Part shown: piece by piece, positions 31,013-51,996 of the stretch
Layout: each line of letters opens with the position of its first letter
How positions within the stretch are numbered: the stretch's first letter is position 1
Assembly: GCA_965262725.1 (NCBI GenBank)
Contig: OZ253555.1
Span: 2,240,001 to 2,304,000 of the forward strand
Source: Dehalococcoidia bacterium
GTDB taxonomy: Bacteria > Chloroflexota > Dehalococcoidia > UBA2979
Direction: 5' to 3'
Length of the DNA stretch: 64,000 nucleotides
Made by a program: the position numbers and the translations under genes
The notes under the pieces: model-generated
Database searches by the model: none
What the model saw: the letters and a program-made list of their open reading frames with translations, nothing else
What the model was told of the DNA's origin: nothing

Positions 31013-31399
31013 TCAGCGCCCGGCGACGTTCCCTGCACCGGCCGGAACCCGGCGCGTGAAGAACTTGATCCGGTAACCGTCGGGCGCCGCGAGAGTCAGC
31101 GAGTGGGCCCAGGGCTCCTCGGCGACTGGCGGTAGCCCGGCGAGGCGGCCGGAGAGCTCCGCCCGGAGCGCGTGCACATCCGGCACCTCCATCGCCGCGC
31201 GCGTGCGCTCGTCGTCGGCCTCGGCCGCCGGGTCGTCGATGATCTCGATGCCCCAGTCACGCGTGCCGAAGCACACCCCGCGCCGCCCCTCCCCCGCGTA
31301 CTCGACGAAGACCGGCCAGCCGAGCACCTCGCCGTAGTAGCGGTAGCACTCGTCGAACCGGGACGTGCGGATCACGGTCCGCGTGCAGATCACATCCAT
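31013..31399 (-). CDS. VOC/glyoxalase family protein
   Basis: FDECYRYYGEVLGW, EVPDV, EPWAHS...APDGYRIKF. Confidence 0.85.
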   Translation of the reverse strand: MDVICTRTVIRTSRFDECYRYYGEVLGWPVFVEYAGEGRRGVCFGTRDWGIEIIDDPAAEADDERTRAAMEVPDVHALRAELSGRLAGLPPVAEEPWAHSLTLAAPDGYRIKFFTRRVPAGAGNVAGR

Positions 31400-31420
31400 C
31401 GAAAACCTCCGTGTCCCGTC

Positions 31421-32242
31421 CTAGGCCTCCGTGCCGTCGCCGCGCATGAAGTCAAGCACGGCCGCGACCCACGCGTCGGGTTGCTCGTCGACGATGTCGT
31501 GCGTGCCGCCCTCCAGCTCGACGTAGGGCAGATCCGGGCGAGCCTCGCGGGCGCGCTGGGTCGCGCGGTAGAGATCCTCCCCCGTGTTGGTCAGCAGCAG
31601 TGTGGGCACGGCGAGGTCACGCAGCGCTGCCTCGAGGTCGTACGTGAAGACCGGGATGTAGCCGTACCACTCCGTCTCGCGCACCTGCAGCATCTCGATC
31701 ACGCATCGCGTCATCGCACGCAGGTCGGTGTAGCCGGTCGTCACGCGGAGCCGGCGCTCCCACGGCTCCAGCAGGTGGCTGCCGTCCTCCCGGATCTCGG
31801 GCGCGCGCTCCGGGAGCCGCGCCAGGTAGCGAGCGCGCTGGTCGGCGCGGAAGAACGGGACGCCGTTGAGGATGAGCCGGGAGACGCGCTCGGGGTGGGA
31901 GCGGCCGAGCTCCGAGGCGGTCACGGCGCCGGTATGGTGCCCCAGCACCGTGGCACGCGGGACGTCGAGCGCGTCGAGGAGCGCGAGCGCCGCCCCGGCG
32001 TACCCCTCGGCGGTCGGCCGGCCGGGCAGCGGGTCCGACATCCCGTAGCCGGGCGTGTCGGGGGCCAGCACGCGGACACCCGCCGCCGCGAGCCGGGGGT
32101 AGGCCGCCTCCCACTGGAGCCCGGAGCTCGGCGTCTGGTGCAGGAGCAGGAGCGGCTCCCCGGCGCCCCCCTCGCGGTAGTGCAGCTGGCCGGCGTCGAG
32201 ATCGATGTAACCCCGCCGCGGTCCCCGCATCGTCGTCGTCAT
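31421..32242 (-). CDS. Alpha/beta hydrolase fold protein (GHHTG elbow)
   Basis: LLLLHQTP, PDTPGYGMSD, LGHHTGA, GGTHD. Confidence 0.9.
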   Translation of the reverse strand: MTTTMRGPRRGYIDLDAGQLHYREGGAGEPLLLLHQTPSSGLQWEAAYPRLAAAGVRVLAPDTPGYGMSDPLPGRPTAEGYAGAALALLDALDVPRATVLGHHTGAVTASELGRSHPERVSRLILNGVPFFRADQRARYLARLPERAPEIREDGSHLLEPWERRLRVTTGYTDLRAMTRCVIEMLQVRETEWYGYIPVFTYDLEAALRDLAVPTLLLTNTGEDLYRATQRAREARPDLPYVELEGGTHDIVDEQPDAWVAAVLDFMRGDGTEA

Positions 32243-32376
32243 TGCGCCTCCGGTCGCTCCTCGGGTGCCGGCGCATCGTAGCGCGTGCGCCAGCCGGGCG
32301 GACGCCGGCTCTGGACGTGGGCGGGCGGTTCGGGCATGGTGCCGGCGGCGCGGACGCGTCGGCCTCGGGGGCAGTA

Positions 32377-33471
32377 GTGCGCTTCAGTACGTTCCACCAG
32401 CCGCTCGCCCCGACCAGCGGCGACGACCGCCGTGTGATAGGCGAGCAGATCGAGCAGGTCGTCGTGGCCGAGGAGCTCGGCTTCCGGACGGCGTGGCTGA
32501 CCGAGCACCTCTTCAACGCCACCTGCGCCTACGGCGACCCCACGCTCATCGCGGCCGCGCTCTCCCAGCGGACGACACGCATCCGCATCGGCTTCGCCGT
32601 ACTCCAGATGGCGATGACGCATCCCTCGCGGCTCGTGATCCAGGCCGGGGTTCTCGACAACCTGCTCGACGGGCGTCTCACCATCGGGCTCGGCCGCGGC
32701 TCCGCCTTCAACCCGGGCGAATACGCGGCATTCGGGCGCTCGCCGGACGAGGAGCGCGACCGACGGCGGATGTTCGAAGCGATCGAGCTGATGGAGCGCG
32801 CGTGGGCCGGAGAGGGCGAGTTCGCTGGCGAGCACTTTCGGGTGACCATCTCGGAGGTCCACCCTGTGCCCGTCCAACGGCCGCACCCGCCGATCGTGCT
32901 CTCGGTGCTCTCGGATGAGACGCTCGGTTGGGCAGCGCGGCACGGGCACTCGGTGCTGATGCCGCGCCTGGAGATCGGGCGCGCCGTCAACCGCCTCGCG
33001 TTCTTCCGGGAGGCACTGCGCGAGGCGGGGCACGATGGCGAGACCATCGAGCGACTGGTCGACGGTTGCGCCATGACCAGGACGATCTACGTCGCGGAGA
33101 GCGACGCCGAAGCGCGGGCGGAACTCGAGGCGGCCGAGACACGCCATCGGCACGGCCGCGCGCCGGACGTCGACGGGCAGGCGCCAACGAGCCCCGATCC
33201 GAGGCTCTGGCAGGCGGAGCCGGCGGCGTCGTCCCCGCCCTCGCCCGATGGCGCCGCCGCCCTCCTCACGAAGACGATCCTGGGCCAGTCGATCGCGGGC
33301 ACTCCTGAGACCGTGCGTGCCGAGATCGAGCGGCTGCGGGCAGCCGGCGTCCCGGAGCTGATGCTCGCCTTCAGCCGGGGCGACATCCCGCACGAGAAGG
33401 TCGTGCGCTCGATGGAGCTCTTCGCCCGCGAGGTGATGCCGGCGTTCGCGGCCGATCCCGCGGCGGTGTAG
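32377..33471 (+). CDS. Luciferase-like (LLM) flavin-dependent oxidoreductase
   Basis: AEELGF...WLTEH, RTTRIRIG, LDNLLDGRLTIGLGRG, PVQRPHPP, GTPETV, SMELFAREVMP. Confidence 0.92.
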   Translation: MRFSTFHQPLAPTSGDDRRVIGEQIEQVVVAEELGFRTAWLTEHLFNATCAYGDPTLIAAALSQRTTRIRIGFAVLQMAMTHPSRLVIQAGVLDNLLDGRLTIGLGRGSAFNPGEYAAFGRSPDEERDRRRMFEAIELMERAWAGEGEFAGEHFRVTISEVHPVPVQRPHPPIVLSVLSDETLGWAARHGHSVLMPRLEIGRAVNRLAFFREALREAGHDGETIERLVDGCAMTRTIYVAESDAEARAELEAAETRHRHGRAPDVDGQAPTSPDPRLWQAEPAASSPPSPDGAAALLTKTILGQSIAGTPETVRAEIERLRAAGVPELMLAFSRGDIPHEKVVRSMELFAREVMPAFAADPAAV

Positions 33472-33530: not shown

Positions 33531-34313
33531 ATGCCTCGAGGTTATGTCACCGGCCGCTGGGGCCAGGTGCACTACCGTGCCGCCGGCGAGCGCGGGCCGG
33601 CGGTGCTGCTGGTCCACGAGTCGCCCCTCTCCTCCGAGGAGTACGTCCGGGCGCTGCCGGAGCTCGGCCGCTCCGTGCGCGCGGTCGCCTTCGACACGCC
33701 GGGGTACGGGCAGTCGGACCCGCCCCCCGCGCCACAGGAGATACCCGACTACGCGGCCGCGCTCCTCGAGGCGGCCGACGAGCTGGGCCTCGAAGAGTTC
33801 GCGGTGGTGGGTACGCACACGGGAGCCTCGATCGCCGTCCAGATCGCGGTTCAGGCCGCGCCCGGGCGCGTCACGCACGCTGTGCTCTCCGGCATCCCGC
33901 TGATGAGGCCGGAGACGCGCGCCTCCCTGCTCGCCACGTGGGCCCCGGAGACGCCGCCCCAGGCCGACGGGTCACACTTCGCCGAGGTGTGGGGGCGTTA
34001 CGCGGCGCAGGGCGACCCGCCGCCCGACTTCATTACGACGCTCGCCTGCTCGCTGTTCTCGGTCTGGGACCGCTACAACTGGGCGTACAACGCGGCGTTC
34101 CGCTACGACCCCGCGCCCGACCTGCCGTCGCTGGCCTGCCCGACCCTCTTTCTCACGGCCGCGTCCGACCTGCTGCTGCGCGCCGACGAGCGCGCGCTCC
34201 GGGCCGTTCCGGACGGACGGATGGAGGTCGTCGAGGGGCGCTCGCACCCGCTTCCGTGGTGCGTGCCGGAGCGCTTCGCCCGTGAGATCGCGGACTTCGT
34301 CGGCGCGGGCTAG
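33531..34313 (+). CDS. Alpha/beta hydrolase fold protein (GTHTG elbow)
   Basis: GQVHYR, LLVHESP, FDTPGYGQSD, VGTHTGA, GRSHP. Confidence 0.9.
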   Translation: MPRGYVTGRWGQVHYRAAGERGPAVLLVHESPLSSEEYVRALPELGRSVRAVAFDTPGYGQSDPPPAPQEIPDYAAALLEAADELGLEEFAVVGTHTGASIAVQIAVQAAPGRVTHAVLSGIPLMRPETRASLLATWAPETPPQADGSHFAEVWGRYAAQGDPPPDFITTLACSLFSVWDRYNWAYNAAFRYDPAPDLPSLACPTLFLTAASDLLLRADERALRAVPDGRMEVVEGRSHPLPWCVPERFAREIADFVGAG

Positions 34314-35425
34314 ATTGCCCCGTCCCGCCGCGCCGGCACCGCGGCCGCGGGCGCGGGCCCGTCGAGCTGCGGCATGACCTCGGCCGCGAAGTGGCGCATC
34401 GACTCGAGAACGCGCTCATGAGGGAGGTCGCCCCAGCTGAACGCGAGCATGACGCGTCGCACGCCCGCCTCCGCGAGTTCTTCCAGCCTCGCCCGAGCCA
34501 TCTCGGGCGTGCCGATGATGTGGGTCCGCTGGATCACGCGCGAGAAGTCCTCGGCGCCCTCGACCGCCTGGGGCGCCGCGGCCGGCGCCCTCCATGCATC
34601 CATCGGGATCGCGAGCGAGGTCGTATTCAGGGCCCGGGAGTGCGCACGCGCCGCGTTGGCGCGCTCGGTCGCCGCAGCAGCGGTCGCGCGCGCCTGCTGC
34701 TCGCTGTCGGCGAGGTGAATGGAGCGCGAGATCGCGCAGTCGTCGAGCACCCGCTCGATCGTCGCCTCGTCGTGGCCGGCCTCCTCCATTGCGCGCGCGA
34801 AGAACGCCAGCCGCTCGCGGGCGCGACCCACCTCCAGGCGCGGGAGAAGGATCGCGTATCCACGCGCCGCAGCCCACAGCAGCGTGTCGTCGGAGAGGGA
34901 GGACAGCGCGATCGGCGGGTGAGGCCGCTGGATCGGCGCGGGCCGAACACCATGGACCTGCACCTGGAAATGCTCGCCCTCGAAGGGGCTGTGGTCGCCG
35001 GCCCACGCGCGCTCCATCAGCTCGATGGCCTCAAACATGCGCTCGCGCTGGCCCTCCGTGTCCGCGCCGAACCCCGCGTACTCGAACTGGTTGAATGCGG
35101 AGCCGCGGCCGATCCCGATGGTGAGACGCCCGTTGAGCAGGTTGTCGAGCGCGGACGTCTGGATCAGAACGCGCGTCGGATGGTGCAGGGCCATCTGCAG
35201 CACCGCGAAACCAATCCGGATGCGCGTCGTGCGCTGCGAAAGCGCTGCGCCGAAGATCAGCGGGTCGGCGAAGGCGGACTCACCCGTGAAGTTGTGCTCG
35301 GTCAGCCACGCCGTCCCGAACCCGAGGCGCTCCGCTTCCACGATCTGGTCGATCTGCTCGGTCATCACGCGGTGGTCGTCGTCCGCCGACGGCGAGTACG
35401 GTAGGTGGAATGTATCGAACAGCAT
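34310..35425 (-). CDS. Luciferase-like (LLM) flavin-dependent oxidoreductase
   Basis: Close paralog of 32377-33471: WLTEHNF, AALSQRTTRIRIGFAV, GRGSAFN, PIQRPHPP. Confidence 0.92.
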   Translation of the reverse strand: MLFDTFHLPYSPSADDDHRVMTEQIDQIVEAERLGFGTAWLTEHNFTGESAFADPLIFGAALSQRTTRIRIGFAVLQMALHHPTRVLIQTSALDNLLNGRLTIGIGRGSAFNQFEYAGFGADTEGQRERMFEAIELMERAWAGDHSPFEGEHFQVQVHGVRPAPIQRPHPPIALSSLSDDTLLWAAARGYAILLPRLEVGRARERLAFFARAMEEAGHDEATIERVLDDCAISRSIHLADSEQQARATAAAATERANAARAHSRALNTTSLAIPMDAWRAPAAAPQAVEGAEDFSRVIQRTHIIGTPEMARARLEELAEAGVRRVMLAFSWGDLPHERVLESMRHFAAEVMPQLDGPAPAAAVPARRDGAI

Positions 35426-35669
35426 GGCGGCTCCCGTCGTGGTGCCAGGGCGACCGCCCCGGCTCGTTCGCCTCGCCGGTGCTGCGGGGCGCGCGGCGCT
35501 GGCCGCGCCGCTTGGCCGCGACCGCCGCGAGACTACGATCGTCACGCCGCACGGCGCCAGCGGGCCCGGGAGATGCTCCGGCGATGATGGTGGGTCGTGA
35601 GGCTCCCCCGCGGTCCGACCGGCGGGCTCGCGGACCTCGGGGGACCCGTCCATCCGCGGAGCCCGCCGC

Positions 35670-36872
35670 GTGAGCGGGGAGGACGGCCGGGAGGCCGGGC
35701 CGCACCCGGGGCCGCTCGCGGGGCTCCGCATCCTCGAGCTGGGGGGCGGGCAGCCGGGCGCCTACGCGGGCTGGGTGCTGGCCGGGCTCGGGGCCGAGGT
35801 GGTCGTGCTCACGCTTCGCGACGGGCACGACCGCGCGGCCGGTGCAACCCCGGCTGGCCCGGACGACGTCGCGCTCCACGCCGGCAAACGCCGCCTTCTG
35901 CTCGATGCGTCCCGGCCCGGCGGGCGCGAGGTTGCCCTGCGAGTGGCGGCCCGCTCGGACGCGATCGTCAACAGTCTCTCACCGCGCATCGCCGAGGAAC
36001 TCGGTCTCAGCGTCGACTCGGTGCGCGCGGCCAGCCCGGGAATCGTCTACGCGCAGGCCACGGCGGCCGGTGCGATCGGTGGCGACCCGAACGAGCCTCT
36101 CGCCGACATCGTGGGCCAGGCGGCGGGCGGATTGATGTGGAAGACGGGCCTGGCTGGAAGCCCGCCCACGGCGGCCGGCGCCGCGCTCGGGGACCACGGC
36201 GCCGGTGCCTATCTCCTCGCGGCGACGCTCGGCGGGCTGGCGCAGGCGGCGCTCACCGGACGCGGTGCGCGCGTCGACGTCTCGCTCGTGGGCTCCCAGA
36301 TCGCCCTCCAGTCGTGGGAGATCGCCGCTGAGTCCGTGTTCGGACGCGACAGCGGTCGCGCGGGCCTGGGGCACCCCGAGGTGTCGCCGGGCGCGATCTG
36401 GGGCACCTTCGAGGCGCGCGACGGGTGGATCGTCCTCGGCTCGGTCGACGCCGCTCGCTTCGAGCGACTGAGCGCGCTGATGGATCTCCCGGATCTCTTC
36501 GCGCTCTACCCGGATGACGCGCGACGCTCGGCCGGCATCCCCGACATCGTCGCGCGCCTGCGCACGCGCTTCCCCGATCACGACTGCTCCCACTGGCTCG
36601 GCCTCTTCGCCGAGCACGACATCATGGGCGCGCGCGTGAGCGGCTACGACGACGTGGTCGCGGACGAGCAGGCATGGGCGAACGGCTACCTGCGCACGCT
36701 TGCCGATCCCGCCGGCGCCGCCGTCGCCGGCGCCCCGATCGAGTTCGACGGCGGCGGCGCGTTCGCGGTGCGTAGGCCGCTCGGCGATGAGCACGAGCCC
36801 GGGTCCCTCCTTGAGGAACTCGGATACGGTCCGGATGAGGTCGCGGCGCTGCGCGCGTCCGGCGTGCTCTGA
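35670..36872 (+). CDS. Family III (CaiB/BaiF) CoA-transferase, pair 1 upstream subunit
   Basis: PLAGLRILE, GKRR, QAAGGLM..TG, ALGDHGAG, DVSL, FEARDGWI, ANGY. Confidence 0.88.
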   Translation: MSGEDGREAGPHPGPLAGLRILELGGGQPGAYAGWVLAGLGAEVVVLTLRDGHDRAAGATPAGPDDVALHAGKRRLLLDASRPGGREVALRVAARSDAIVNSLSPRIAEELGLSVDSVRAASPGIVYAQATAAGAIGGDPNEPLADIVGQAAGGLMWKTGLAGSPPTAAGAALGDHGAGAYLLAATLGGLAQAALTGRGARVDVSLVGSQIALQSWEIAAESVFGRDSGRAGLGHPEVSPGAIWGTFEARDGWIVLGSVDAARFERLSALMDLPDLFALYPDDARRSAGIPDIVARLRTRFPDHDCSHWLGLFAEHDIMGARVSGYDDVVADEQAWANGYLRTLADPAGAAVAGAPIEFDGGGAFAVRRPLGDEHEPGSLLEELGYGPDEVAALRASGVL

Positions 36873-36882
36873 GGAGGAATAC

Positions 36883-38058
36883 GTGACCCGACCGCTCTCC
36901 GGCGTGCGCATCGTGGACTTCACCCTCTACCAGCAGGGCCCGTATGCGACCGTGATGCTCGCCGACATGGGCGCCGACGTGATCAAGGTCGAGCGGCGCG
37001 AGGGCGAGCGCACGCGCGCCTACCAGGACGAGCGCGCGCGCGCCCATCAGAAATGGACCGGCGTCGCCTTCTACATCAACAATCGCCGCAAGAGGAGCAT
37101 CGCGCTCGACGCGCGCACCCCCGGAGGTCGCGCGATCGTGCTGCGGCTCGCGGCGAGCGCGCACGCCCTCGTCCACAACTTTCGCCCGGGCGTCATGGAG
37201 CGGCTCGGCCTGGGCTACGAGGACCTGCGCGAGGCGAATCCGGCGATCGTCCACGCCCGTGCCTCGGGCTGGGGTCCGCGCGGTCCGCGGGCACGCCAGG
37301 CCAGCGTCGATCTCATCGCGCAGGCTGCGGGCGGGCTGATGTCTCGCACCGGCTTTCCGGGGGATCCGCCGCTTCCTCTCGGGGCGGCGGTCGCGGACCA
37401 GCTGGGGGCGATCCATCTCTGTGCCGGCATCCTCGCCGGTATCGTCCGCGCGTCGCGAGTCGGCGAGGGGAGCGAGGTCGACGTCTCCCTGTTCGGGAGC
37501 CAGATCGCCGCGCAGGGCCCGGAGCTCGCCGCACATGCGATGGGAGAACCGCCGCCCTCGCGCGGGGGGGCGGGCGAGGGGCTTCGGCGGCCGGATCACG
37601 CGGTGTCGGGCGTCTTCGCCACGTCGGACGGCTGGATCGCGCTGGCGGCGACCGAGGCGGCGCTCCCCCGCCTGCACGCGGCGCTCGAAGCGACCACGCC
37701 CGCAGGCGCACGGGCGGAGGAGGTCGACGCGGCCGTGCGCCTGCGGCTGGGGCACGGAACGACGGCCGCGTGGCTGGAGCAACTCTCCGCCCTGGACGGA
37801 GTCGCCGTCGGCCCCGTCCGGCGTTATGCGGAGATCCTCGACGACCCGCGCGCTCGCGCCAACGGCTACATCGTCGACCTGGACCACCCCGTGTGGGGAC
37901 GCCGAGCCGTCGCCGGCTCGCCGATCGTCCTTGATGGTGCACCGCTCACAGACCCCGGACGCGTCCCCGAGGTCGGCGAGTCAACCGAACTCGTGCTCGA
38001 GGAACTCGGCTACGGCTGGGACGAGATCACGGCGCTCCGCGAGGAGGCCGTGATCTGA
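36883..38058 (+). CDS. Family III CoA-transferase, pair 1 downstream subunit
   Basis: DFTLYQQGPYA..MLADMGADVIKVE, NRRKRSI, NFRPGVMERLGLG, VADQLG. Confidence 0.93.
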   Translation: MTRPLSGVRIVDFTLYQQGPYATVMLADMGADVIKVERREGERTRAYQDERARAHQKWTGVAFYINNRRKRSIALDARTPGGRAIVLRLAASAHALVHNFRPGVMERLGLGYEDLREANPAIVHARASGWGPRGPRARQASVDLIAQAAGGLMSRTGFPGDPPLPLGAAVADQLGAIHLCAGILAGIVRASRVGEGSEVDVSLFGSQIAAQGPELAAHAMGEPPPSRGGAGEGLRRPDHAVSGVFATSDGWIALAATEAALPRLHAALEATTPAGARAEEVDAAVRLRLGHGTTAAWLEQLSALDGVAVGPVRRYAEILDDPRARANGYIVDLDHPVWGRRAVAGSPIVLDGAPLTDPGRVPEVGESTELVLEELGYGWDEITALREEAVI

Positions 38059-38158
38059 GGAAGCGGGTGGGACGGGAACCCTTCGCCGGAACGCGCCTGC
38101 GACCGGTGTAGTAGGCTCCCCCGGAGCCGCTAGACCGCGGTCGCCGAGGGGGAGACCG

Positions 38159-39367: not shown

Positions 39368-39524
39368 GCCACCGCGACAGGGGAGGCGGGGCGCCGCCGG
39401 GGTGAGCCCCGTGCGCGAGGCCGGGCGCAGGCCCCCGGGCTATTCTCGACATCGCTCGAGTGGGCATGTACGGTCGCAGCGTCAGCGCCCGGAGGGCGCA
39501 GCTTCCACCGACGGGGGATGGCCA

Positions 39525-42400: not shown

Positions 42401-42444
42401 CACCCGCGAAGCCCCGCCCGGCGGTCCATCCCGGGGGGCACGGC

Positions 42445-43551: not shown

Positions 43552-44009
43552 TCGTTGGCCTGCATGTGATCCTGCTTCGCGTGGAAGACGTTGAGCGGGA
43601 GCGACAGTTCTACGAGGACGCCTTCGACCTGCCCCTGGAGGAGATCCCGCGGGTCGAGGGCCAGCTCGCACACCTCCGACTGCCCGGGATCGCGTACGAC
43701 GGGGGGTCCACCTTCAGCGGGACGCTCGAGATCATCGCAGGCGGGAAGCCCCAGCCGGTCCCCGACGACCGCATCCACTCCCCGACGACGCCCGTCTTCC
43801 AGGTCGACGATATCGAGGAGTCGATGCGCCGCGTGGTGGCCGCCGGTGGCACCGTCGTGAACGAGCCATGGAGCAGCACGCAGCGCAGCGCGTTCACGAG
43901 CCAGGAGATCTTCGAGAGTGCCCGGCGCTCGGGGCGAGGCGTGCAGCTCGCCTACTTCGCCGATCCCGAGGGGCATGTGATCGGCCTGCGGCGCCCGATC
44001 GCCGTGTAG
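43548..44009 (+). CDS. VOC/glyoxalase family protein
   Basis: LHVILLRVEDVERERQFY, FQVDDI, AAGG, YFADPEGHVI. Confidence 0.88.
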   Translation: MIVGLHVILLRVEDVERERQFYEDAFDLPLEEIPRVEGQLAHLRLPGIAYDGGSTFSGTLEIIAGGKPQPVPDDRIHSPTTPVFQVDDIEESMRRVVAAGGTVVNEPWSSTQRSAFTSQEIFESARRSGRGVQLAYFADPEGHVIGLRRPIAV

Positions 44010-44094
44010 CAGCGGTTCCTTGATCGGCAGGCCCCCGGGTCGCGCCCCGGCGGCGTGATCGGGGGCGGCGACCGGCGTGATGCGGCGCGGTTCG

Positions 44095-45228
44095 CTATGT
44101 CGCGCCGCGCCACATCCGGGCGAAGTCCGTCGGGGCGGCCGAGCCGCTGCCGAGCAGCGCTGGAAGCAGGCCAGGGTCGGGCTCGATGTCACGGAGCACC
44201 GGGAGCACGCGCTCGACGAAGCGGCCGAGGCTCGCACGGATGCGCTCGTCCTCCATGTGGCCGAAGTTCATCCAGCAGAGCAGGTTCTGAATGCCGAGCT
44301 GTGCGAGCGGCGTGAGGCGCTCCACCACCTCCTCGGCGGTGCCGGCGACGAGCCAGCCGCCGCGCATGTAGCGATCACGCCAGTCGGAGAACTGTGACGG
44401 CGAGAGGTCCGCCCCGGCCTCGCCGGCGTTCGCCACGGCGCTCTTGCGGACGTAGACATCGATGGGATCGGCGATCGAGCGCCGCCAGTCCTCGCCGTCC
44501 TCGGCGACGTAGATCTGACGGAGCACGCTCGTGTCGGCGAGACCGCGGGCGCGGACGCCTTCCCCCCCGTTCGCTGAGGCGACCTCGAGTCCGCCGAGGT
44601 AGTGAGCCAACCGCGGCGCCAACACGTCCACTTCGACCGGGCCGAGCAGCAGCGACCAGCCGCGCCGCCCCGCCATCTCGAGCCGGCCGGGATCGGAGGA
44701 GGCGAAGGCGATGTGCGGGTGAGGTTTCTGCACGGGCGCCGGGATGACGCGGCCACGCACCTCTCCCTGGTAGTGGGATCCCTGGTAGGCGAAGCCCGCA
44801 GGACCCGCGGACCACGCGAGGTCGCAGACCTCCATGAACTCGGCCATTCGCTCATGACGGCGCGTTATGTCGACCCCATACCCGGCGAACTCGTCGGGGG
44901 CGTTGCCGGGCCCGATGCCGATGACGACCTTCCCCGCCGTGAGCTGGTCGAGGAGGTTGCAGCGCGTCACGAAACGGATCGGGTGCTCCAGGGGGACGAC
45001 GTTGACCGCGAAGCCGATGCGCATCGAGGGGTTTCGTTGGCTGATCGCCGCCGCCATCGTGATCGGATCCGAATAGACGTTGTAGCCCGTGAAGTGATGC
45101 TCGGTGATCCAGATGTCCGAGAAGCCCCGTCGCTCGGCGAGGTCGACCTGCGCGAGCACCTCCGCCAGCACGCGGCGATCGTCGGCGGGCCCCGGCGTCT
45201 GCGGGTTCAGGTAGTAGCTCGCGCGCAG
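44095..45228 (-). CDS. Luciferase-like (LLM) oxidoreductase, probable CTG start
   Basis: WITEHHF, IGFAV, LDQLTAG, PVQKPHP, AGTAEEV; N-terminus extends in frame to CTG 45228 with GGAG 7 nt upstream. Confidence 0.9.
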   Translation of the reverse strand: MRASYYLNPQTPGPADDRRVLAEVLAQVDLAERRGFSDIWITEHHFTGYNVYSDPITMAAAISQRNPSMRIGFAVNVVPLEHPIRFVTRCNLLDQLTAGKVVIGIGPGNAPDEFAGYGVDITRRHERMAEFMEVCDLAWSAGPAGFAYQGSHYQGEVRGRVIPAPVQKPHPHIAFASSDPGRLEMAGRRGWSLLLGPVEVDVLAPRLAHYLGGLEVASANGGEGVRARGLADTSVLRQIYVAEDGEDWRRSIADPIDVYVRKSAVANAGEAGADLSPSQFSDWRDRYMRGGWLVAGTAEEVVERLTPLAQLGIQNLLCWMNFGHMEDERIRASLGRFVERVLPVLRDIEPDPGLLPALLGSGSAAPTDFARMWRGAT

Positions 45229-45255
45229 CGTTCGACTCCGTCCGGTGGCCGAGGG

Positions 45256-46416
45256 CTAGTAGACTTTCTCGTCGCGCAGCCGCGTGATCTCGTCCCAGCC
45301 GTAGCCTATCTCCTCAAGGTAGCGCTCGGTGTGCTCACCGTAGGTCGGCGGCGGCGTGGCTCGCGCCATGGGCTCGCGGTCGAATGTGATCGGCATCCCC
45401 ACGACCGTGATCGCGCCGTGCTCCGGGTGGTCCATGTCGAGGAGATAGCCGTTCGCGCGGGCCTGGGGGTCGTCCCGGATATCGCCGTAGCGCTGCACCG
45501 GCGCTGCCGCGATCCCCGCACCCCGCAGCCGCTCGACCCAGTCGGAGGCGCGGCGGGACGGGAGCCGCTCGCGGAGGCCGCTGAGGATCGAGCCGAGAGT
45601 GTTCTCGTCCGCCTGCTCGGTCGGCGGATCCAGACCCGCGACCTCGCAGAGCGTCGCGATCCCCGCCGGATCGGTGCAGCCGATGGCGATCCAGCCGTCG
45701 GCCGCCTCGAATGCCTGCCAGACGCCGCGGCCGTTGATCAGCGAGTGGCCGACGCCCGCGCGGGGCTCGGCGCCCCCTCCCCGCAGCGATCGCTCCGCGA
45801 ATTCCCACGCCTGGAGAGCCACCTGGCCACCGTAGAGCGACGTGTCGACCTGCTCACCGTGGCCGGTTCGCGCGGCGCGGGCGAGGGCGGCGAGCAGCGC
45901 CGAGCAGAGCACGAGCGCGCCGACCTGATCCGTGACCGCGCACCCGGTCGTCATCGGCGCTCCGCCGTCGAAGCCAGTGCGCCACATGAGCCCACCGCGG
46001 GCATGGCCCACCATGTCGACGGCGCCCTCGGAGACGCGCGGGCCGAAGGGGCCCCAGCCCGAGCCCTGCACGACGACGACCCGCGCGTTCACGCGGCGGA
46101 GGTCCTCGAATCCGAGGCCGAGCTTCTCCATCACGCCCTGGCGGAAGTTGCTGGTCACGACGTCGGAGGTCGCCGCCAGGCGCCGGGCGATCTCGTTGCC
46201 CTCCGGGTGCTTCAGGTCGAGGCTGATCGACCGCTTGTTGCGGGTGTGCGCGAGCACGAAGCCTCGCATCCACGGCTCGCCGCCGCCGATGCGCCCACCG
46301 CTCCTCTCGACCTTGATGACCTCGGCACCCATGTCGGCGAGCAGCTTCGTGGCATGCGGGCCCTGCTGAGCGATGGTGAAGTCGAGGACGCGGATGCCGG
46401 TGAGGGGGCCGCTCAT
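45256..46416 (-). CDS. Family III CoA-transferase, pair 2 downstream subunit
   Basis: DFTIAQQGPHA..LLADMGAEVIKVE, NKRSISLDLK, NFRQGVMEKLGLG, VTDQVG. Confidence 0.93.
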   Translation of the reverse strand: MSGPLTGIRVLDFTIAQQGPHATKLLADMGAEVIKVERSGGRIGGGEPWMRGFVLAHTRNKRSISLDLKHPEGNEIARRLAATSDVVTSNFRQGVMEKLGLGFEDLRRVNARVVVVQGSGWGPFGPRVSEGAVDMVGHARGGLMWRTGFDGGAPMTTGCAVTDQVGALVLCSALLAALARAARTGHGEQVDTSLYGGQVALQAWEFAERSLRGGGAEPRAGVGHSLINGRGVWQAFEAADGWIAIGCTDPAGIATLCEVAGLDPPTEQADENTLGSILSGLRERLPSRRASDWVERLRGAGIAAAPVQRYGDIRDDPQARANGYLLDMDHPEHGAITVVGMPITFDREPMARATPPPTYGEHTERYLEEIGYGWDEITRLRDEKVY

Positions 46417-47603
46417 GCGACCACGCCGTCCGCGCGCAGCGCGGCGATCGCGTCGGGCGTGTAGCCGATCTCGGCGAGCAGCGCCTCGGCATCGGCTCCA
46501 CGAGCGGGCGGCGGCGTGGGCGCCGGCGACGGCTCGCGTCCGAACATGAAGGGCGAACCGCAGACCGGCACGGTGCCGCGCTCCGGGTGCTCCACGTCGA
46601 CCACGTAGCCATTCGCTCGCGCCTGCGGGTCGGCGGCGATGTCGTCGTCGTCCTGCACCTTCACGCCGAGGATGTCGCGCTGCGCGATCTCCTCGAGCCA
46701 CGCCGTGACCGGACGCGTGCGCAGCCGCTCGCCGAACGTCGCCACGATCTCGTCGATGTGCTCGGCCTGGGCTCGCTCGTCGGGCCAGCGCTCGGACATC
46801 TCCGGCTCGCCGATCATGTCGCAGAGCTGGGGCCAGCGTGCGCGCAGCACGCCCGCGATCTGGAGCCAGCCGTCGGCGGTCTCGAACGCGTGGCAGATGC
46901 GACGATCGCTGACGTCGGGGTGGCCGACGGAGATGCGTTCCGTGACTCGCCCGAGCAGCCACTCGCTGTCTATTTCCCAGGACTGCATCCCGATCTGCGA
47001 GCCGTAGAGCGAGACGTCGACGCGGCGTCCGCGCCCCTCCCGCTCGGCGCCGGTCACCGCCGCGAGGACACCGACCACCAGGTAGAGAGCACCGACGCCG
47101 TCGGCGAGAGCGACGCCGGCCGGCATCGGGGGGCCGTCCGGCTCGCCCGTCTTCCACATCACGCCGCCGACCGCCTGCGCGGTGATATCGGCGCCCGGAG
47201 CGCCGGCGAGCGGGCCCAGCGGACCGTACGGAGAGGTCACGGCGAGCACGGCGCGGGGAGACTCCGCGCGCAGCCGCTCCTCGTCGAGGCCGAGCTCGGT
47301 GAGCAGTCCGAGCCCGAGCGGCGCGACGATGGCGTGGGCGTGTCGCACGAGCGACAGCACGAGCTCGGCCGCCCGGGGGCTCCCCGGCTCGACCGCGATA
47401 CTGCGCTTCCCGCTCTCGACTGCGATCTCCCACGACGACGGTGCCGGCTCGCCGAGGTCCACGGGCGAGCCGCGCCGCGGCTCACCGGCTCGCTCCACCT
47501 TCACCACGTCGGCGCCCATCTCCGCCAGCATTTTCGTGGCGAGCAGGCCCTGCCCCGTCTCGGAGAGGTCGAGGATGCGCACGCCCGCCAGCGGCGATGT
47601 CAC
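46413..47603 (-). CDS. Family III CoA-transferase, pair 2 upstream subunit
   Basis: PLAGVRILDLS, LAEMGADVVKVE, GKRSI, LADGVG, DVSLYGSQIGMQSWE, FETADGW. Confidence 0.9.
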   Translation of the reverse strand: MTSPLAGVRILDLSETGQGLLATKMLAEMGADVVKVERAGEPRRGSPVDLGEPAPSSWEIAVESGKRSIAVEPGSPRAAELVLSLVRHAHAIVAPLGLGLLTELGLDEERLRAESPRAVLAVTSPYGPLGPLAGAPGADITAQAVGGVMWKTGEPDGPPMPAGVALADGVGALYLVVGVLAAVTGAEREGRGRRVDVSLYGSQIGMQSWEIDSEWLLGRVTERISVGHPDVSDRRICHAFETADGWLQIAGVLRARWPQLCDMIGEPEMSERWPDERAQAEHIDEIVATFGERLRTRPVTAWLEEIAQRDILGVKVQDDDDIAADPQARANGYVVDVEHPERGTVPVCGSPFMFGREPSPAPTPPPARGADAEALLAEIGYTPDAIAALRADGVVA

Positions 47604-48421
47604 GATTGCGCGGCCGCCTGCGCCGCCGGAGACTCGGAGGCTCGAGCACCGATCATTTCGTTCCGGGCCGTGGCGACGCAGGCGACGAGCGAACGCCCGA
47701 AGACGCCCCGCTCGTCGTGAAGCGCGCACTCGCCGACCGCCACCCCCTCGGCGCTCCCGCGAGCCACGACATCGAGACAGATCCACTCGCCCACCGGCAG
47801 CCGGTGCATGTAGAGCGTCATGTCCGCGTTCTTGAAGTAGAGCCCCACAGGACTGCGGTTGCTCACCGGGCTCGTGGCCTCGGCGCCCTCCGACGCCCTC
47901 ACCAGCGGCGTCAGCGGCGCGCCGTCGACGAGCGGCATCCGCATTCGCGTCCAGCGCGCCGCGGGCTCCGACCCCCCCGTCGGGCGCAGCGAGCGATTCT
48001 CGATCGAGGACGTGGCGGGGTTCCGACCCGGCCATCGATCCGTGGCGATTCCCTCCGGGCCGGAGACGGTTCGCGGGGGCGTTGTGGCGACGTCTCCGGG
48101 CGGCTCCTCGGTCCGGCGGATGAGCAGCGCCGTGGCACGGCTCACCTCGACGCCGTCATGCGTGAGCGAGACGTCGACGACCCGGATGCGCCGCCCGTCC
48201 CTCACGACCCGAGAGCTCATCCCGAGCGGCCCACGCGGCACAGGGCGGTACATGTCGAAGGTGAGGCGCGCGGGATGCAGCGTGCCGTCGACGTGGCGCT
48301 CGACCTCGTGAGCGAGGAGCCCCGTCACGAGTCCGCCGCCGAGCTCATTGTCGCCCCACGGCCCGCGGGCATTCTCACCGGGAATGTAGAGCCCGTCCTC
48401 GAGCGTGAACGCGGCGCTCAT
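47600..48421 (-). CDS. Thioesterase family protein (double hotdog)
   Basis: ARGPW....GG, RLTFDMYRPVP, RDGRRI, NADMTLYMHRLPVGEW, LHDERG; start ATG 48421 or 48454. Confidence 0.82.
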   Translation of the reverse strand: MSAAFTLEDGLYIPGENARGPWGDNELGGGLVTGLLAHEVERHVDGTLHPARLTFDMYRPVPRGPLGMSSRVVRDGRRIRVVDVSLTHDGVEVSRATALLIRRTEEPPGDVATTPPRTVSGPEGIATDRWPGRNPATSSIENRSLRPTGGSEPAARWTRMRMPLVDGAPLTPLVRASEGAEATSPVSNRSPVGLYFKNADMTLYMHRLPVGEWICLDVVARGSAEGVAVGECALHDERGVFGRSLVACVATARNEMIGARASESPAAQAAAQS

Positions 48422-48542
48422 CGTGGCGCAGCCCGGCGAGCGGTCTCTCTGCATGACGATTGCTGGTGCATCGATCCCGCCCCTCTGGCCTCGCGTGGAC
48501 GCTAGGCGGGCACCGGGGGACTGTCAACAGGAACCGCGGGCG

Positions 48543-49406
48543 CTACCGCTCGCCCCTCGCGAAGCGGCGGATCGCATCCAGGACGGCGGCCGGCTGGTCG
48601 TGGTGTACCCAGTGGCCCGCATCGGGAACGACGAGGGTCTGTGCGTCGCGGAAGTGGTCGGCGTCCGCAGGACTCTGAACCCCCCGCCCAGCAGCCTCGT
48701 CGCCGATGAGCAGCAGCACGGGGCAGCGCACGCGCGCCCAGATCGGGGGCGCCTCCTCGGGACGGAGCTCGACCGGATCGCTGGAGTCTACCCACGGATC
48801 GAACTTCCACGCGTGGCCCCCGTCGACCGGCCGCACCGCATACGACGCGAGCTCGAGGGCCCGGTCCGCGGGAAGCCGCGGGTTGCCGCGACGCATCCGC
48901 TCGGCGGCGGCCTCGATACTCGGGAGGAGCCGCGGCAGGCGGCGCTCGAGGGCCCGCGTGTGGTCGACCCACTCCCGCAGCGAGTCGGGCTCGGCGCGCG
49001 GCAGCCTCTGCAGGTGGGCGCCCGTCCCCTCGATCGCGACGATGCGCTCGACATGCTCGGGATAGAGCCCGGCTGCGAGAGTGGCGACGAGACCCCCGCC
49101 GGAGTGCCCGACCACCGACGCCCGGCCGCCGACGACATCGATCAACGCGATGAGGTCGGCGATGTAGTCCGCGAAGACGTAGTGCGCGCCGATCGCCCAC
49201 TGCGAGTCCCCGTGGCCGCGCAGGTCGGCAGCGACCACGTACCACTCCCGCGACAGCTCGGCGGCGAGTCGATCCCACGAGCGCGCGTGGTCGCGCTTCC
49301 CATGAAGGAGGATCAGGGGAGGGCGGGCCCCGTCTCCCCACGCCCAGTACGCGAGGCGCAGCCGCTGCGACTCAAAGACGTGCTGTGTCGGATCGCTCGC
49401 CGTCAT
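48543..49406 (-). CDS. Alpha/beta hydrolase (canonical GHSGG)
   Basis: LLHG, DLRGHGDS, VGHSGGG, WKFDP, AGHWVHHDQP. Confidence 0.92.
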   Translation of the reverse strand: MTASDPTQHVFESQRLRLAYWAWGDGARPPLILLHGKRDHARSWDRLAAELSREWYVVAADLRGHGDSQWAIGAHYVFADYIADLIALIDVVGGRASVVGHSGGGLVATLAAGLYPEHVERIVAIEGTGAHLQRLPRAEPDSLREWVDHTRALERRLPRLLPSIEAAAERMRRGNPRLPADRALELASYAVRPVDGGHAWKFDPWVDSSDPVELRPEEAPPIWARVRCPVLLLIGDEAAGRGVQSPADADHFRDAQTLVVPDAGHWVHHDQPAAVLDAIRRFARGER

Positions 49407-49627
49407 CGGCTCCGCCTTATCGTCGGCCCGCGCGCAGCGCTCGGAGCCCGCCTCGCGGCGCCGGCCGGGACGCCCGAGACGCCCGCTCACAGCGACACGC
49501 GTCGGGCGCGAGATGGGCGGGCATCCTTCTCGTCGCGGAGCCTGACGCCACCATTCTACGCGCGGGTGTGATACTCCTAGGAGCGACCGTGCGCATTGCG
49601 CCGGGACGGTCGGGAGGGAGCCATTCG

Positions 49628-50815
49628 ATGACGGCCGCACTCGCGGGTGTGCGCGTGCTGGAGCTGGTGCCGACGCGCCAGAGCGCCTATGCGACGCGGA
49701 TGCTCGCCGACATGGGCGCGCTCGTGACCCTGGTCGAGCCGCCCGCGGGGACGGCGCTCTCCGCGGCGCGCTTTGAGCACGAACTCGACCGCATCACCTT
49801 CCACGCGCGCAAGCAGAGCGTGGTGCTCGACATCGAGCGGGAGCAGTCCCGCGGGATCCTGGGGCGCCTCACGGCGGAGGCCGATGTCGTGGTGCGGAGC
49901 GTCGGCGAGGCGACCGCGGAGCGACTCGGCATCGACGAGGAATCACTGCGAGCGCTGAACGGCCGGGTCGTCTATGCGGTCTGCTCCGGCTTCGGACCGC
50001 GGGGGGATCTCGCGGACGCGCCCGCCACCGACATCAACGCTCAGGGCGCGGGCGGCTACATGGCTCGTTCCGGCTTCGAGGGCGAGCCGCCGCTCCCCGC
50101 CGGCGCGGTGATCGCGAGCTCGACCGGCGCCATGTACCTCTGCTCGGGCATCCTGGCCGCGCTCATCCGCGCCGGGCGAACCGGAGTCGGAGGGCGCGTC
50201 GATGTCTCGCTCTACGGCGCTCAGATCGGCATCCAGTCCTGGGAGCTCGACTCCCAGTCCGTGCGCGGGATCGTGAGCCCGCGCATCGGGCGCGGGCACC
50301 CCGACATCAGCGACTACACGCTCTGCCACGTCTTCGAGGCGAAGGACGGCTGGATCACGCTGGCCGGCATGGGCTCGCCGCGCTGGGAGGCGCTCTGCGG
50401 GCTGCTGGGGCTGAGCGAGCTCCAGGGGCAGTTCATGCCCTACGGCGACCGCTCGAAGTGGGCCGTGAGCATGGCGGAGGTGCTCGAGATTCTCGGCGAG
50501 CACTTCCTGCTGCGGACCCGCGCGGAGTGGCTGGAGGCGTTCGAGCGCGTCGGCGTCACCGGCGGGTCGGCACAGACGCACGAGGAGATCCTGGGTGAGC
50601 CGCAGGCCCGGGCCAACGGCTACATGACCGAGATGGCCCATCCCACGCTCGGACCGATCACGGTCGTGGGCTCTCCCTACGTCTACGGCGGCGAGCCGGC
50701 GACACCGCCGCCTCCGCCGCCAGCGCCCGGCGCCGACACGGAGCGCCGCCTCGCGGAGCTCGGCGTGGCGGCGGGCGAGGTTGCTGCTCTGCGGGGAGAG
50801 GGGGTGCTTGGATGA
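49628..50815 (+). CDS. Family III CoA-transferase, pair 3 upstream subunit (catalytic Asp replaced by Ser)
   Basis: LAGVRVLE, MLADMGA, KQSV, GAVIASSTG, DVSLYGAQIGIQSWE, FEAKDGW. Confidence 0.88.
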   Translation: MTAALAGVRVLELVPTRQSAYATRMLADMGALVTLVEPPAGTALSAARFEHELDRITFHARKQSVVLDIEREQSRGILGRLTAEADVVVRSVGEATAERLGIDEESLRALNGRVVYAVCSGFGPRGDLADAPATDINAQGAGGYMARSGFEGEPPLPAGAVIASSTGAMYLCSGILAALIRAGRTGVGGRVDVSLYGAQIGIQSWELDSQSVRGIVSPRIGRGHPDISDYTLCHVFEAKDGWITLAGMGSPRWEALCGLLGLSELQGQFMPYGDRSKWAVSMAEVLEILGEHFLLRTRAEWLEAFERVGVTGGSAQTHEEILGEPQARANGYMTEMAHPTLGPITVVGSPYVYGGEPATPPPPPPAPGADTERRLAELGVAAGEVAALRGEGVLG

Positions 50816-51996
50816 ACCGGCCGCTGGATGGAGTTCGCGTTCTCGACTTCTCGATCGCCCAGCAGGGGCCGCATTCGATGATGATGCTCGCCCAGATGGG
50901 AGCCGAGGTGATCCGCGTCGACCGGAGCGGGCCGGGTGTTCCACCCGCGCGCCCGCCCTCTCGGGATCACCACATGGTCGGATTCTCGTTTGCCCACGCG
51001 CTCGGTAAGAGGAGCATCGCCGTCGACGTGCGTCGGCCGGAGGGCCGCACGATCGTGCTCCGACTCGCCGCGACGGCGGACATCGTCACGAGCAACTTCC
51101 GGCCGGGCGTCATGGAGAAGCTCGGACTCGGCTTCGAGGACATGCGAACCGCGAACCCCCGCATCGTCTACGCGACGGGAAGCGGTTGGGGCCGGCTTGG
51201 CCCGTACCCGCAGCGAACCTCGCTCGACATGGCGGCACAGGCCGCCGGGGGGATGGTGTGGCTCTCTGGCTACGAGGGCCGGGCGCCCGCGCCGGCCAGC
51301 TGCGCCATCGCCGACCAGGTGGGAGCTCTCACGCTGTGCGCCGGCGCGCTCTCCGCCCTCGTCCGCGCCGATCGCACCGGCGAGGCCGTGCAGGTCGACA
51401 CATCGCTCTACGGGGGCGGCGCGGCGCTGCAGGCCTGGGAGATGAACGCGTCGTCGCTTCAAGGGCGAACGGTCCGCTCCGGCGACGCACATACCGTTCT
51501 TCGGCCGCGGGGGTCGGTCGGGCGGGCGTTCGAGACCTCCGATGGGTGGATCACGATCGCTGCCGAGGATGCCCCCACCTTCGCGCGCCTCTGTGAAGCC
51601 ATCGACACTCCCGACCTGGCCGAACGCTACCCGCACGACGAGGCCCGCTCGGCCGGAATCGACGCCATCGAGCGGCGTCTCGCCGAGCTGCTCGCGTCGC
51701 GGCCGGCGGAGCACTGGCTCGCGGCGCTCCGCGAGCGGGAGGTGCCCGCGGGACGTGTGCAGAGCTTCGCCGAGGTCCTTGCCGACCCGCAGGCGCGCGC
51801 CAACGGCTACATCGGGCGCACCGCGCACCCCGACTTCGGTGAGATCGACGTGGCGGGCCTTCCGATCCTCTTCGAGCGCGAGCCGGTCGCGCCCCCGCCC
51901 CCGGCCCGGCCGGGCGCCGACACGGAGGCATACCTCCAGGAGGTCGGCTACAGGTCCGACGAGATCGAGCGGCTGCGGGACGACGGCGTGATCTGA
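50812..51996 (+). CDS. Family III CoA-transferase, pair 3 downstream subunit
   Basis: DFSIAQQGPH, GKRSI, NFRPGVMEKLGLG, IADQVG. Confidence 0.93.
   Translation: MNRPLDGVRVLDFSIAQQGPHSMMMLAQMGAEVIRVDRSGPGVPPARPPSRDHHMVGFSFAHALGKRSIAVDVRRPEGRTIVLRLAATADIVTSNFRPGVMEKLGLGFEDMRTANPRIVYATGSGWGRLGPYPQRTSLDMAAQAAGGMVWLSGYEGRAPAPASCAIADQVGALTLCAGALSALVRADRTGEAVQVDTSLYGGGAALQAWEMNASSLQGRTVRSGDAHTVLRPRGSVGRAFETSDGWITIAAEDAPTFARLCEAIDTPDLAERYPHDEARSAGIDAIERRLAELLASRPAEHWLAALREREVPAGRVQSFAEVLADPQARANGYIGRTAHPDFGEIDVAGLPILFEREPVAPPPPARPGADTEAYLQEVGYRSDEIERLRDDGVI

Follow-up and report, generated by a model that had tools for sequence, protein, structure and literature searches.

Do the genes of a dense catabolic cluster in a Dehalococcoidia genome act as the steps of one pathway? 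The cluster, here called the block, occupies positions 31013..51996 (21 kb) of a 64,000-nucleotide stretch of contig OZ253555.1 (hereafter the window; Dehalococcoidia bacterium, host genome a single contig of 3.67 Mb), and its 19 genes were numbered g1 to g19 from left to right (Table 1). The original prediction, made from the letters of the window, saw in it a regulator-free route leading from uptake through oxygenation, hydrolysis and CoA activation to dehydrogenation. We favour, with moderate confidence, a different answer: a genus-specific, dispensable catabolic block of SAR202-like Dehalococcoidia, made up of two or three modules that run in parallel about a core operon, and not of a single linear pathway. 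The gene content, the paralogy, the pair structure of the CoA-transferases, and the conservation, deletion and relocation of the genes as a block are direct observations.

A gene block kept, moved and lost within one genus

The gene models of the window (73% GC) were guided by the GC content of third codon positions (GC3) and their starts were refined; raw lists of open reading frames (ORFs) held many shadow ORFs. Protein families were assigned by Pfam and NCBIfam profile searches of the 19 block proteins. The predicted inventory was confirmed: three luciferase-like monooxygenases (LLMs), six family III (CaiB/BaiF) CoA-transferases, three alpha/beta hydrolases, two vicinal oxygen chelate (VOC) proteins, and one each of acyl-CoA dehydrogenase (ACAD), thioesterase, Gfo/Idh/MocA dehydrogenase, solute-binding protein (SBP) and permease. 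Pfam cut-offs were passed by 18 of the 19 proteins; the exception, g1, was placed by its homologues, which bear the VOC name or PF00903, and by an AlphaFold2 (AF2) model (predicted local distance difference test, pLDDT, 82) with VOC-fold PDB matches at template modelling (TM) scores of 0.65-0.74. No helix-turn-helix (HTH), AMP-binding, integrase or transposase domain was found among the 19 proteins with either database, in agreement with the predicted lack of CoA ligase, integrase and transposase genes.

Among named records, the closest are metagenome-assembled genomes (MAGs) labelled 'Dehalococcoidia bacterium' and 'Chloroflexi bacterium'. Synteny was read from tblastn tables, limited to matches with an identity of at least 45-50% that spanned over half of the query. 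Contig L001 (genome G003) carries the gene of a DRTGG-domain protein, g1, g2, g4-g19 and the DUF4389 gene in the same order as the window, with 70-91% amino-acid identity and without g3, and L002, a contig of 8.9 kb, retains g10 (partial) to g18. In genome G004, g3-g17 stand together on a contig with different flanks and constitute a relocated block: OppB, OppC and ATPase genes lie upstream, a SnoaL protein gene and a two-component pair lie downstream, g1, g2, g18 and g19 are not beside the block, and the DRTGG gene is on another contig. This copy has a TetR-family regulator gene between g5 and g6 (L016:11657-12418, + strand) and a Usp fragment with an IS481-type transposase gene between g12 and g13 (transposase, L017:3599-4537, - strand), and its g5 appears frameshifted, split over two frames. 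No counterpart of the TetR gene was matched in the window's genome with that single query. Thus, 'regulator-free' describes this genome and L001 but not the G004 copy. The variable gene g3 occurs in the window's genome (G000) and in G004 and is absent from L001 and L025.

The contig of genome G001 (L025) carries, in this order, g1, g2, g4, some 120 nt, the final ~58 nt of g19, DUF4389, DsbA and HNH, and a 17.6-kb segment is missing from it (Table 1). By blastn, L025:1082-1864 corresponds to window 33520-34301 and L025:1985-3784 to window 51939-53779; the scar (L025:1865-2083) consists of about 120 unmatched nt after the g4 stop and then the g19 coding remnant (about 58 nt) just before DUF4389. 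This remnant shows that G001 has lost a once-present block, and that its locus is therefore not an empty ancestral site. Orthologues of g10, g8 and g19 were not found elsewhere in G001, whose completeness is estimated at 85%.

Of the four other genus members, three have an orthologue-level match to g10 (at least 77% identity); 36 genomes from other genera gave no such match, the best there being 36% identical. Similarly, g8 is 85-93% identical within the genus and at most 51% identical elsewhere, no better than the 23 paralogues of g8 in its own genome. Three complete genomes of other genera (G006, G008 and G009) keep the DRTGG gene with no cluster within 17-19 kb beyond it; G009 keeps the entire rpoD-Lit-MazG-Trx-DZR-PcrA-DRTGG string, of which the G001 contig keeps DZR-PcrA-DRTGG, and the DRTGG gene was found in all five genomes searched for it. 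L003 was rejected as a relative of the block (a 33% paralogue with no synteny). The original prediction took the genes to belong together, and gene neighbourhoods agree with this within the genus, where they are not scattered (order kept in L001, g3-g17 together in G004, g5-g19 lost together in G001), but give nothing of the kind outside it. Judged from these comparisons, the block is a genus-level accessory and dispensable unit that moves and is lost as a piece and has a variable periphery, and it is old enough for protein divergence of 10-30% within the genus.

A hot spot of paralogues, where local duplication and recombination brought together genes that each serve their own pathway, could also yield such a cluster. 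The genome is rich in the material for it, with 70 matches to CoA_transf_3 and 42 to Bac_luciferase (Pfam; about 69 CoA-transferase domains and about 41 LLMs) as well as 32 ACAD-type and 50 alpha/beta hydrolase-type ORFs, and it has several other dense spots, at 0.91 and 1.00 Mb. In the block itself g3 is an inverted duplicate of g5, all six CoA-transferases go back to a single ancestral pair, the periphery differs from one genus member to the next and the window copy has no regulator. On the other side, g5-g17 stay together in three genomes, even after the relocation in G004, and translational coupling joins genes of unlike families (g16/g15 and g11/g12). The density is exceptional. When CoA-transferase, LLM, ACAD and alpha/beta hydrolase genes were counted in sliding windows of 21 kb, the block ranked first with 13 genes (next best, 9; 13 reached by 0.04% of the windows); with CoA-transferase and LLM genes alone it tied for first with 9 genes, and other such dense spots lie at 0.91 and 1.00 Mb. 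Across the genome, an LLM lies within 5 kb of 16 of the 36 CoA-transferase loci (4.6 on average and at most 13 in 1000 random trials) and a PimC-like (g8-type) ACAD within 5 kb of 13 of the 36 (4.0 on average and at most 11 at random). Both the proximity counts and the window counts took 41 Pfam places as LLMs, two fragments at 3.447 Mb being merged; a 3-sequence LLM profile was dropped for counting, since it recovered only 19 LLM ORFs. The clustering of these families in the block exceeds chance, and the proximity of LLM and ACAD genes to CoA-transferase genes is a genome-wide rule above random expectation. We consider a hot spot without shared function unlikely.

The block also occurs in environmental data. 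At least half of the sampled words of 35670-44009 occur in 18 run entries from a set of nine studies, and the block is found with few differences in two DNA runs, each from a different study. Contigs from two metatranscriptome libraries, both of one study, cover g10 (40628-42426; about 94-100% likeness), and one piece lies in g18; note that in these RNA contigs uncovered parts of the block are not readable as silence, depth does not rank the genes, and an RNA library may contain DNA. These contigs are a faint hint that the binding protein g10 is expressed.

CoA-transferases as pairs and fusions

A full-length CoA_transf_3 domain is present in all six block genes (210-321 bits against a Pfam cut-off of 23.3). 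They form three co-oriented pairs, g6+g7, g15+g14 and g18+g19, two of which have 4-nt overlaps, the g6/g7 pair having a 10-nt gap. The same arrangement prevails throughout the genome, where 63 of the 69 domains are fused or adjacent: 28 are in 14 two-domain ORFs, 28 in 14 adjacent co-oriented pairs and 7 in arrays (one of three and one of four), and 6 are singletons. The 14 fused ORFs are about 800 aa long with very short linkers (e.g. L018:77-2461 (+), L019:103-2583 (-) and L020:143-2593 (+)), and none of them reached an NCBIfam equivalog.

In the maximum-likelihood tree, first and second members fall in separate deep clades, including a 23-row clade of first members only (SH-like approximate likelihood ratio test, SH-aLRT, 99). 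The position labels required 19 changes on this tree against a mean of 40.6 for shuffled labels, and none of 200 shuffles was as low. The six block proteins form, together with one singleton, a clade of their own (SH-aLRT 100), within which g15 and g18 are sisters (SH-aLRT 94), as are g14 and g19 (SH-aLRT 96); at least two of the pairs therefore arose by duplication of a pair. The placement of g6 and g7 in the tree is unsettled, but path lengths put each of them closest to members of the same position.

In family III enzymes the catalytic aspartate is Asp169 of CaiB/Frc/YfdW, according to PMC9196870. The corresponding column, set by aligning the block proteins to SUGCT and Frc, is that of Asp172 in g7. 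It holds Asp in 15 of 16 second members of adjacent pairs (the other, Ser), in 13 of 14 second domains of fused ORFs (the other, Thr) and in all six singletons. It holds Asp in only 3 of 16 first members of adjacent pairs (one of the 13 others being Glu) and in 3 of 14 first domains of fused ORFs (the others, eight Glu, two Thr and one Arg). Within the block, g7, g14 and g19 have Asp both in this genome and in L001, and the residues in the window and L001, respectively, are Asp and Glu in g6, Asp and Glu in g15, and Ser and Ser in g18.

Taken together, the fusions, the position-specific lineages, the coupled translation and the asymmetric constraint argue that the six block proteins are probably three heteromeric two-subunit enzymes (heterodimers) and not six independent ones. 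We tentatively extend this to the genome: it is possible, although we would not lean on it, that the SAR202-like expansion of CaiB/BaiF genes represents about 35 obligately two-part, asymmetric CoA-transferases, in which the second part keeps the Asp and the first part diversifies for specificity. The first part, freed from catalysis, would supply half of each interface active site and hence the substrate specificity. Duplication of whole pairs would be the unit of innovation, by which many unusual acids may be loaded onto CoA without ATP.

Two-part enzymes of this family have precedents. SmtAB of Chloroflexus is a heteromeric family III CoA-transferase, and DddD is a two-domain family III enzyme with its catalytic Asp in the C-terminal domain. 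The benzylsuccinate CoA-transferase structure (PDB 9fn0) was solved with two different chains, and g7 matches both (134 and 90 bits). The likeness to BbsEF, SmtAB and DddD consists in two different family III subunits lying side by side or fused, as they also do in this genome; the difference is that the block proteins have no equivalog-level similarity to 9fn0, SmtAB or DddD, and that five of the six block subunits retain the Asp. DddD-like top matches were noted in SAR202 by Landry et al. (2017, PMC5395668), and no statement on the domain structure of DddD was found in passages of PMC10664990. In a narrow literature search, in which later SAR202 pangenome papers were not searched by name, we did not find the pair and fusion pattern stated, and a search for two-subunit family III enzymes in which one subunit is degenerate returned nothing relevant.

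Oxygenases, transport and surroundings of the block

The three block LLMs have a full-length Bac_luciferase domain (153-169 bits). In a tree of 40 LLMs, from which the split gene at 3.447 Mb was left out, g3, g5 and g13 all belong to one ten-member subfamily. g3 and g5 are 53-55% identical and lie in a four-member clade (support 99); g13 belongs to a neighbouring small clade whose other members are elsewhere in the genome, and the nearest paralogue of g13 (64%) also lies outside the block. A 370-nt inverted repeat (32366-32735 against 35067-35436; 74% complementary) identifies g3 and g5 as inverted duplicates flanking g4.

As for the cofactor, the nearest PDB structure of g5 is 8cbb (110 bits), against 46.8 bits for the best F420 (coenzyme F420) enzyme, and the corresponding scores of g13 are 90 and 52 bits; 7bip is also among the nearest luciferase-type structures that use flavin mononucleotide (FMN), and in a search listing 8cbb is associated with a preprint about Enhygromyxa salina LuxA. 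The top NCBIfam matches mix F420 and FMN families, all under cut-off. CofG and CofH models had no match in the genome, and F420 may be made only from scavenged FO (7,8-didemethyl-8-hydroxy-5-deazariboflavin) or not at all. On this comparison the cofactor of the LLMs appears to lean towards FMN. With two-component LuxA-type monooxygenases the block LLMs share the full-length Bac_luciferase domain and FMN enzymes as best PDB matches. LuxA-type systems need a separate flavin reductase, for which the genome has five matches, one of them 3 kb to the right of the block at 54944-55834 (-). The block differs from LuxA-type systems in that the scores are only 90-110 bits and lux genes are absent, and a Baeyer-Villiger activity can only be proposed for it. 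The nearby Flavin_Reduct-domain protein (64 bits) is encoded at the tail of an IMPase-like/his gene string; an opposite-strand ORF (54890-55783), picked by GC3, had no Pfam match, and the Flavin_Reduct ORF was preferred.

The ACAD g8 is closest to PDB 6wy8_B (Tcur3483; 189 bits) and 4x28_A (169 bits), generic ACADs scoring at most 117 bits, and its best NCBIfam match is TIGR03204 (PimC; 206 bits against a cut-off of 624). We take 6wy8 and 4x28 to be alpha2beta2 heterotetrameric ACADs of steroid degradation. Such heterotetrameric ACADs are encoded by two adjacent ACAD genes, and the block differs from this type in having only one. The g8-type family has 24 matches in the genome at E<=1e-60 (44-49% identity to g8), several of them beside CoA-transferase pairs or fusions. 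The Gfo/Idh/MocA protein g11 matched NF052479 (153.6 bits) and IolG (122.8 bits), both under cut-off, and PDB 6a3f (133 bits). The block hydrolases are most like 3-oxoadipate enol-lactonases, weakly so in NCBIfam, the best match of g2 being PcaD-type (66-67 bits, under cut-off).

The N-terminus of g10 (RRSFLRG...AVIGC) combines a Tat (twin-arginine translocation)-type signal with a lipobox cysteine and is followed by an Ala/Pro/Thr-rich linker. Adjoining genes for a family 5 SBP and an OppB-type permease are as in Opp/Dpp/Nik importers, whereas the block is without an OppC-type permease or ATPase. With the queries used, the genome gave five OppB-type against two OppC-type matches (the latter at 1.206 and 3.399 Mb), and it seems to have more binding proteins and B-type permeases than complete importers. 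Opp-type loci lie at 1205085-1207045, 3398326-3400161, 123295-124203 and 1296729-1297673 (G000:C1), and g10 has ten matches in the genome at E<=1e-20, of which nine are paralogues.

Some of these similarities could suggest a quite different function, namely the tailoring or detoxification of a secondary metabolite or host-derived compound by a MupA-type LLM together with VOC proteins for binding or resistance. TIGR04020 (MupA/Atu3671, secondary-metabolite LLM) is among the top LLM matches, at 87-97 bits, and the top structural matches of g1 are the antibiotic-binding VOC proteins TnmS1-3 and ZbmA. The former scores are far under the cut-off of 244 bits, however, and a VOC-fold similarity at 13-23% identity assigns no function; no polyketide synthase (PKS), nonribosomal peptide synthetase (NRPS), terpene or other core biosynthetic gene was found in the 64-kb window with Pfam, and the SBP-dependent importer, the ACAD and the CoA-transferases point to assimilation. 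We regard such a function as very improbable.

The block consists of six transcription units of alternating orientation and is not a single operon. The divergent gaps measure 245 and 222 bp, the former being the largest intergenic gap. Start and stop codons overlap by 4 nt at g16/g15, g15/g14, g18/g19 and g11/g12, from which translational coupling is predicted, also between different families (g16/g15, g11/g12). Rfam, at gathering thresholds, found no RNA element in the block and only a tRNA outside it, and a riboswitch was therefore rejected as a stand-in for the missing regulator. A scan of 30500-50400 for sigma-70 promoters and terminators gave no promoter-like and one terminator-like site, below shuffled sequences, and is uninformative at 73% GC.

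Both flanks are housekeeping in character: the left one holds topA, an xerC-like gene, aroQ, efp, xseA, cmk, glmS, ppdK, dnaG, rpoD, pcrA and the DRTGG protein gene, and the right one holds DUF4389, DsbA-like and HNH genes, a tRNA gene, an IMPase-like gene and then hisBCD, hisGZ and birA. The DRTGG gene (29986-31038, -) shares 26 nt with the end of g1 and may belong to one transcript with g2-g1; on the other side, the block is followed by the genes of a DUF4389 protein (52038-52688, +) and an HNH_2 endonuclease-domain protein (53530-54675, +) and the tRNA gene (54798-54870, -). GC content is 0.69-0.745 inside the block and 0.69-0.77 outside, with no compositional difference from the flanks, and the window copy has none of the marks of a horizontal island that were looked for (integrase or transposase, tRNA target, deviant composition).

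Table 1. Genes of the block and the segment missing from G001 (window positions)
Feature	Position	Strand	Remarks
g1, small VOC-fold protein, 128 aa	31013..31399	-	Pfam sub-threshold (18-19 bits); outside deletable block
g2, alpha/beta hydrolase (enol-lactonase-like)	31421..32242	-	Abhydrolase_6/1; outside deletable block, retained in G001 empty site
g3, LLM oxygenase, inverted paralogue of g5, variable gene	32317..33471	+	Bac_luciferase 162.6 bits
g4, alpha/beta hydrolase, left edge of G001 deletion	33531..34313	+	Abhydrolase_1/6; retained in G001, L001, G004
Segment missing from G001 locus (17.6 kb), g5 to most of g19	34302..51938	.	blastn and junction alignment
g5, LLM oxygenase, divergent from g6	34310..35425	-	Bac_luciferase 168.7 bits
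g6, family III CoA-transferase, first member of pair 1	35670..36872	+	CoA_transf_3 210 bits
g7, family III CoA-transferase, second member of pair 1, catalytic Asp172	36883..38058	+	CoA_transf_3 310 bits
g8, acyl-CoA dehydrogenase, PimC / Tcur3483 / 4x28 type	38159..39367	+	three ACAD domains (Pfam)
g9, OppB/NikB-type ABC permease without partner	39525..40442	+	BPD_transp_1; Opp2B 292 bits, under cut-off
g10, family 5 solute-binding lipoprotein, Tat-type signal	40665..42350	+	SBP_bac_5 169 bits
g11, Gfo/Idh/MocA dehydrogenase (sugar/cyclitol-dehydrogenase-like)	42445..43551	+	GFO_IDH_MocA (Pfam)
g12, VOC protein, 4-nt overlap of its start with the g11 stop	43548..44009	+	Glyoxalase 35 bits, cut-off 20.6
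g13, LLM oxygenase, at the end of minus-strand operon g17-g13	44095..45171	-	Bac_luciferase 152.7 bits
g14, family III CoA-transferase, second member of pair 2, Asp kept	45256..46416	-	CoA_transf_3 320.8 bits
g15, family III CoA-transferase, first member of pair 2	46413..47603	-	CoA_transf_3 272 bits; 4-nt overlaps with g16 and g14
g16, double-hotdog acyl-CoA thioesterase (TesB-like)	47600..48454	-	4HBT_3 55.7 bits and 4HBT_3C 46.2 bits
g17, alpha/beta hydrolase, first gene of minus-strand operon	48543..49406	-	Abhydrolase_6 79.8 bits
g18, family III CoA-transferase, first member of pair 3, Ser replaces catalytic Asp	49628..50815	+	CoA_transf_3 265.6 bits
g19, family III CoA-transferase, second member of pair 3, Asp kept	50812..51996	+	CoA_transf_3 317 bits

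Proposed parallel modules and what they would mean

The module that we propose, in a judgement that could fall either way, comprises an oxygenase, a hydrolase and a two-subunit CoA-transferase, and the core operon g6-g12 would add solute capture, an alcohol dehydrogenase, a VOC protein and the ACAD. An organic solute would be captured by the lipid-anchored, Tat-exported g10 together with the OppB-type g9, the second permease and the ATPases being borrowed from elsewhere. A ring or secondary alcohol would be oxidised to the ketone by g11, oxygen would be inserted by g3, g5 and g13 (probably FMN-type, with a reductase encoded outside the block), and the resulting lactone or ester would be opened by the enol-lactonase-like g2, g4 and g17. 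The pairs g6+g7, g15+g14 and g18+g19 would then load the acids onto CoA without ATP, g8, an ACAD of a type for bulky substrates, would desaturate the thioester, and the TesB-like g16 would free CoA from dead-end products; the VOC proteins g1 and g12 may be isomerases, epimerases or ring-cleaving helpers. In this reading, the block relies on genes outside it for the remaining parts of the importer, for reduced flavin, for downstream oxidation and for regulation.

These steps follow the scheme given for SAR202 by Landry et al. (2017, PMC5395668), which runs from a ketone through oxygen insertion by FMN-dependent or Baeyer-Villiger monooxygenases (FMNO/BVMO) to a lactone, an esterase and ATP-free CoA loading by CaiB/BaiF enzymes. 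The families expanded, the proposed logic and the class (Dehalococcoidia) are the same, and the original prediction of a SAR202-type family expansion agrees with that scheme in both families and proposed roles. The difference is that PMC5395668 gives family counts in partial single-cell genomes, whereas physical linkage, deletion and relocation of a block, and the pair and fusion structure of the CoA-transferases are reported here.

Would the same genes serve equally well as a single, linear, self-contained route for one substrate class, with all 19 in series? Every step type is represented, the gene order is conserved in L001 and the block was deleted as a unit in G001, so that the step families named in the original prediction are all in place. 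Self-sufficiency and linearity were not supported by the analysis. Uptake is reduced to one SBP and one orphan OppB-type permease, oxygenation would rely on a reductase encoded outside the block, and dehydrogenation stops at the single ACAD g8, so that transport and beta-oxidation steps are both incomplete. The six CoA-transferases, placed in one route by the prediction, are three paralogous pairs and fit parallel modules better; together with the three LLMs and the three hydrolases they have the look of repeated modules. The genes are, moreover, distributed over six divergent or convergent transcription units, and g3, g1-g2 and g18-g19 come and go between genus members. We consider a single route in series decidedly unlikely.

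The parallel-module reading that we favour has its own difficulties, which we set out together. No equivalog- or subfamily-level NCBIfam name was obtained for any of the 19 proteins, and because every score was under its cut-off we infer every reaction, as we do the substrate class, the heteromeric state and the cofactor. The modules would have no shared regulator across their six transcription units, and the variation of g1-g2, g3 and g18-g19 between genus members argues against one fixed pathway of any kind. No OppC-type permease was found near g9, and the ATPase query matched nowhere in the block. A complete beta-oxidation set is likewise absent: hydratase, hydroxyacyl-CoA dehydrogenase and thiolase were not found among the 19 block proteins with Pfam or NCBIfam, and g8 is the only member of the set in the block. 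With Asp in five of the six CoA-transferases here, those that keep the carboxylate could work as homodimers. The top NCBIfam match of g3 and g5 is an F420 family (TIGR03619, 91-104 bits, under cut-off), and the genome has one CofE match and two CofD-family matches (776610-777257; 1336613-1337431; 941146-941937); with such genes present, the LLMs may carry out F420-dependent redox chemistry. Among the PDB matches at E<=1e-8 (18 and 10 distinct PDB sequences) there was no chain named Baeyer-Villiger or diketocamphane monooxygenase, and at the sequence level the block LLMs have no tie to a characterised type II Baeyer-Villiger enzyme. Finally, no orthologues were found outside the genus in the 36 genomes of other genera searched, and the shallow conservation could partly reflect a short divergence time.

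Clusters of this kind are already known, and the block is a dense example of the SAR202-type family expansion that has been described. SAR202-type bacteria are regarded as oxidisers of recalcitrant dissolved organic matter, and we know of no enzyme of their expanded families that has a known substrate. In this respect the block is a compact test set with natural limits: sister species that carry it, carry it at another locus or have cleanly lost it can be compared for phenotype or habitat, and its binding protein g10 is open to ligand screening. The pair structure of the CoA-transferases means that they should be expressed and assayed as pairs and not as single genes. If the rule of pairs and fusions is general, CoA-transferase gene counts in these bacteria would overstate the number of enzymes about twofold.

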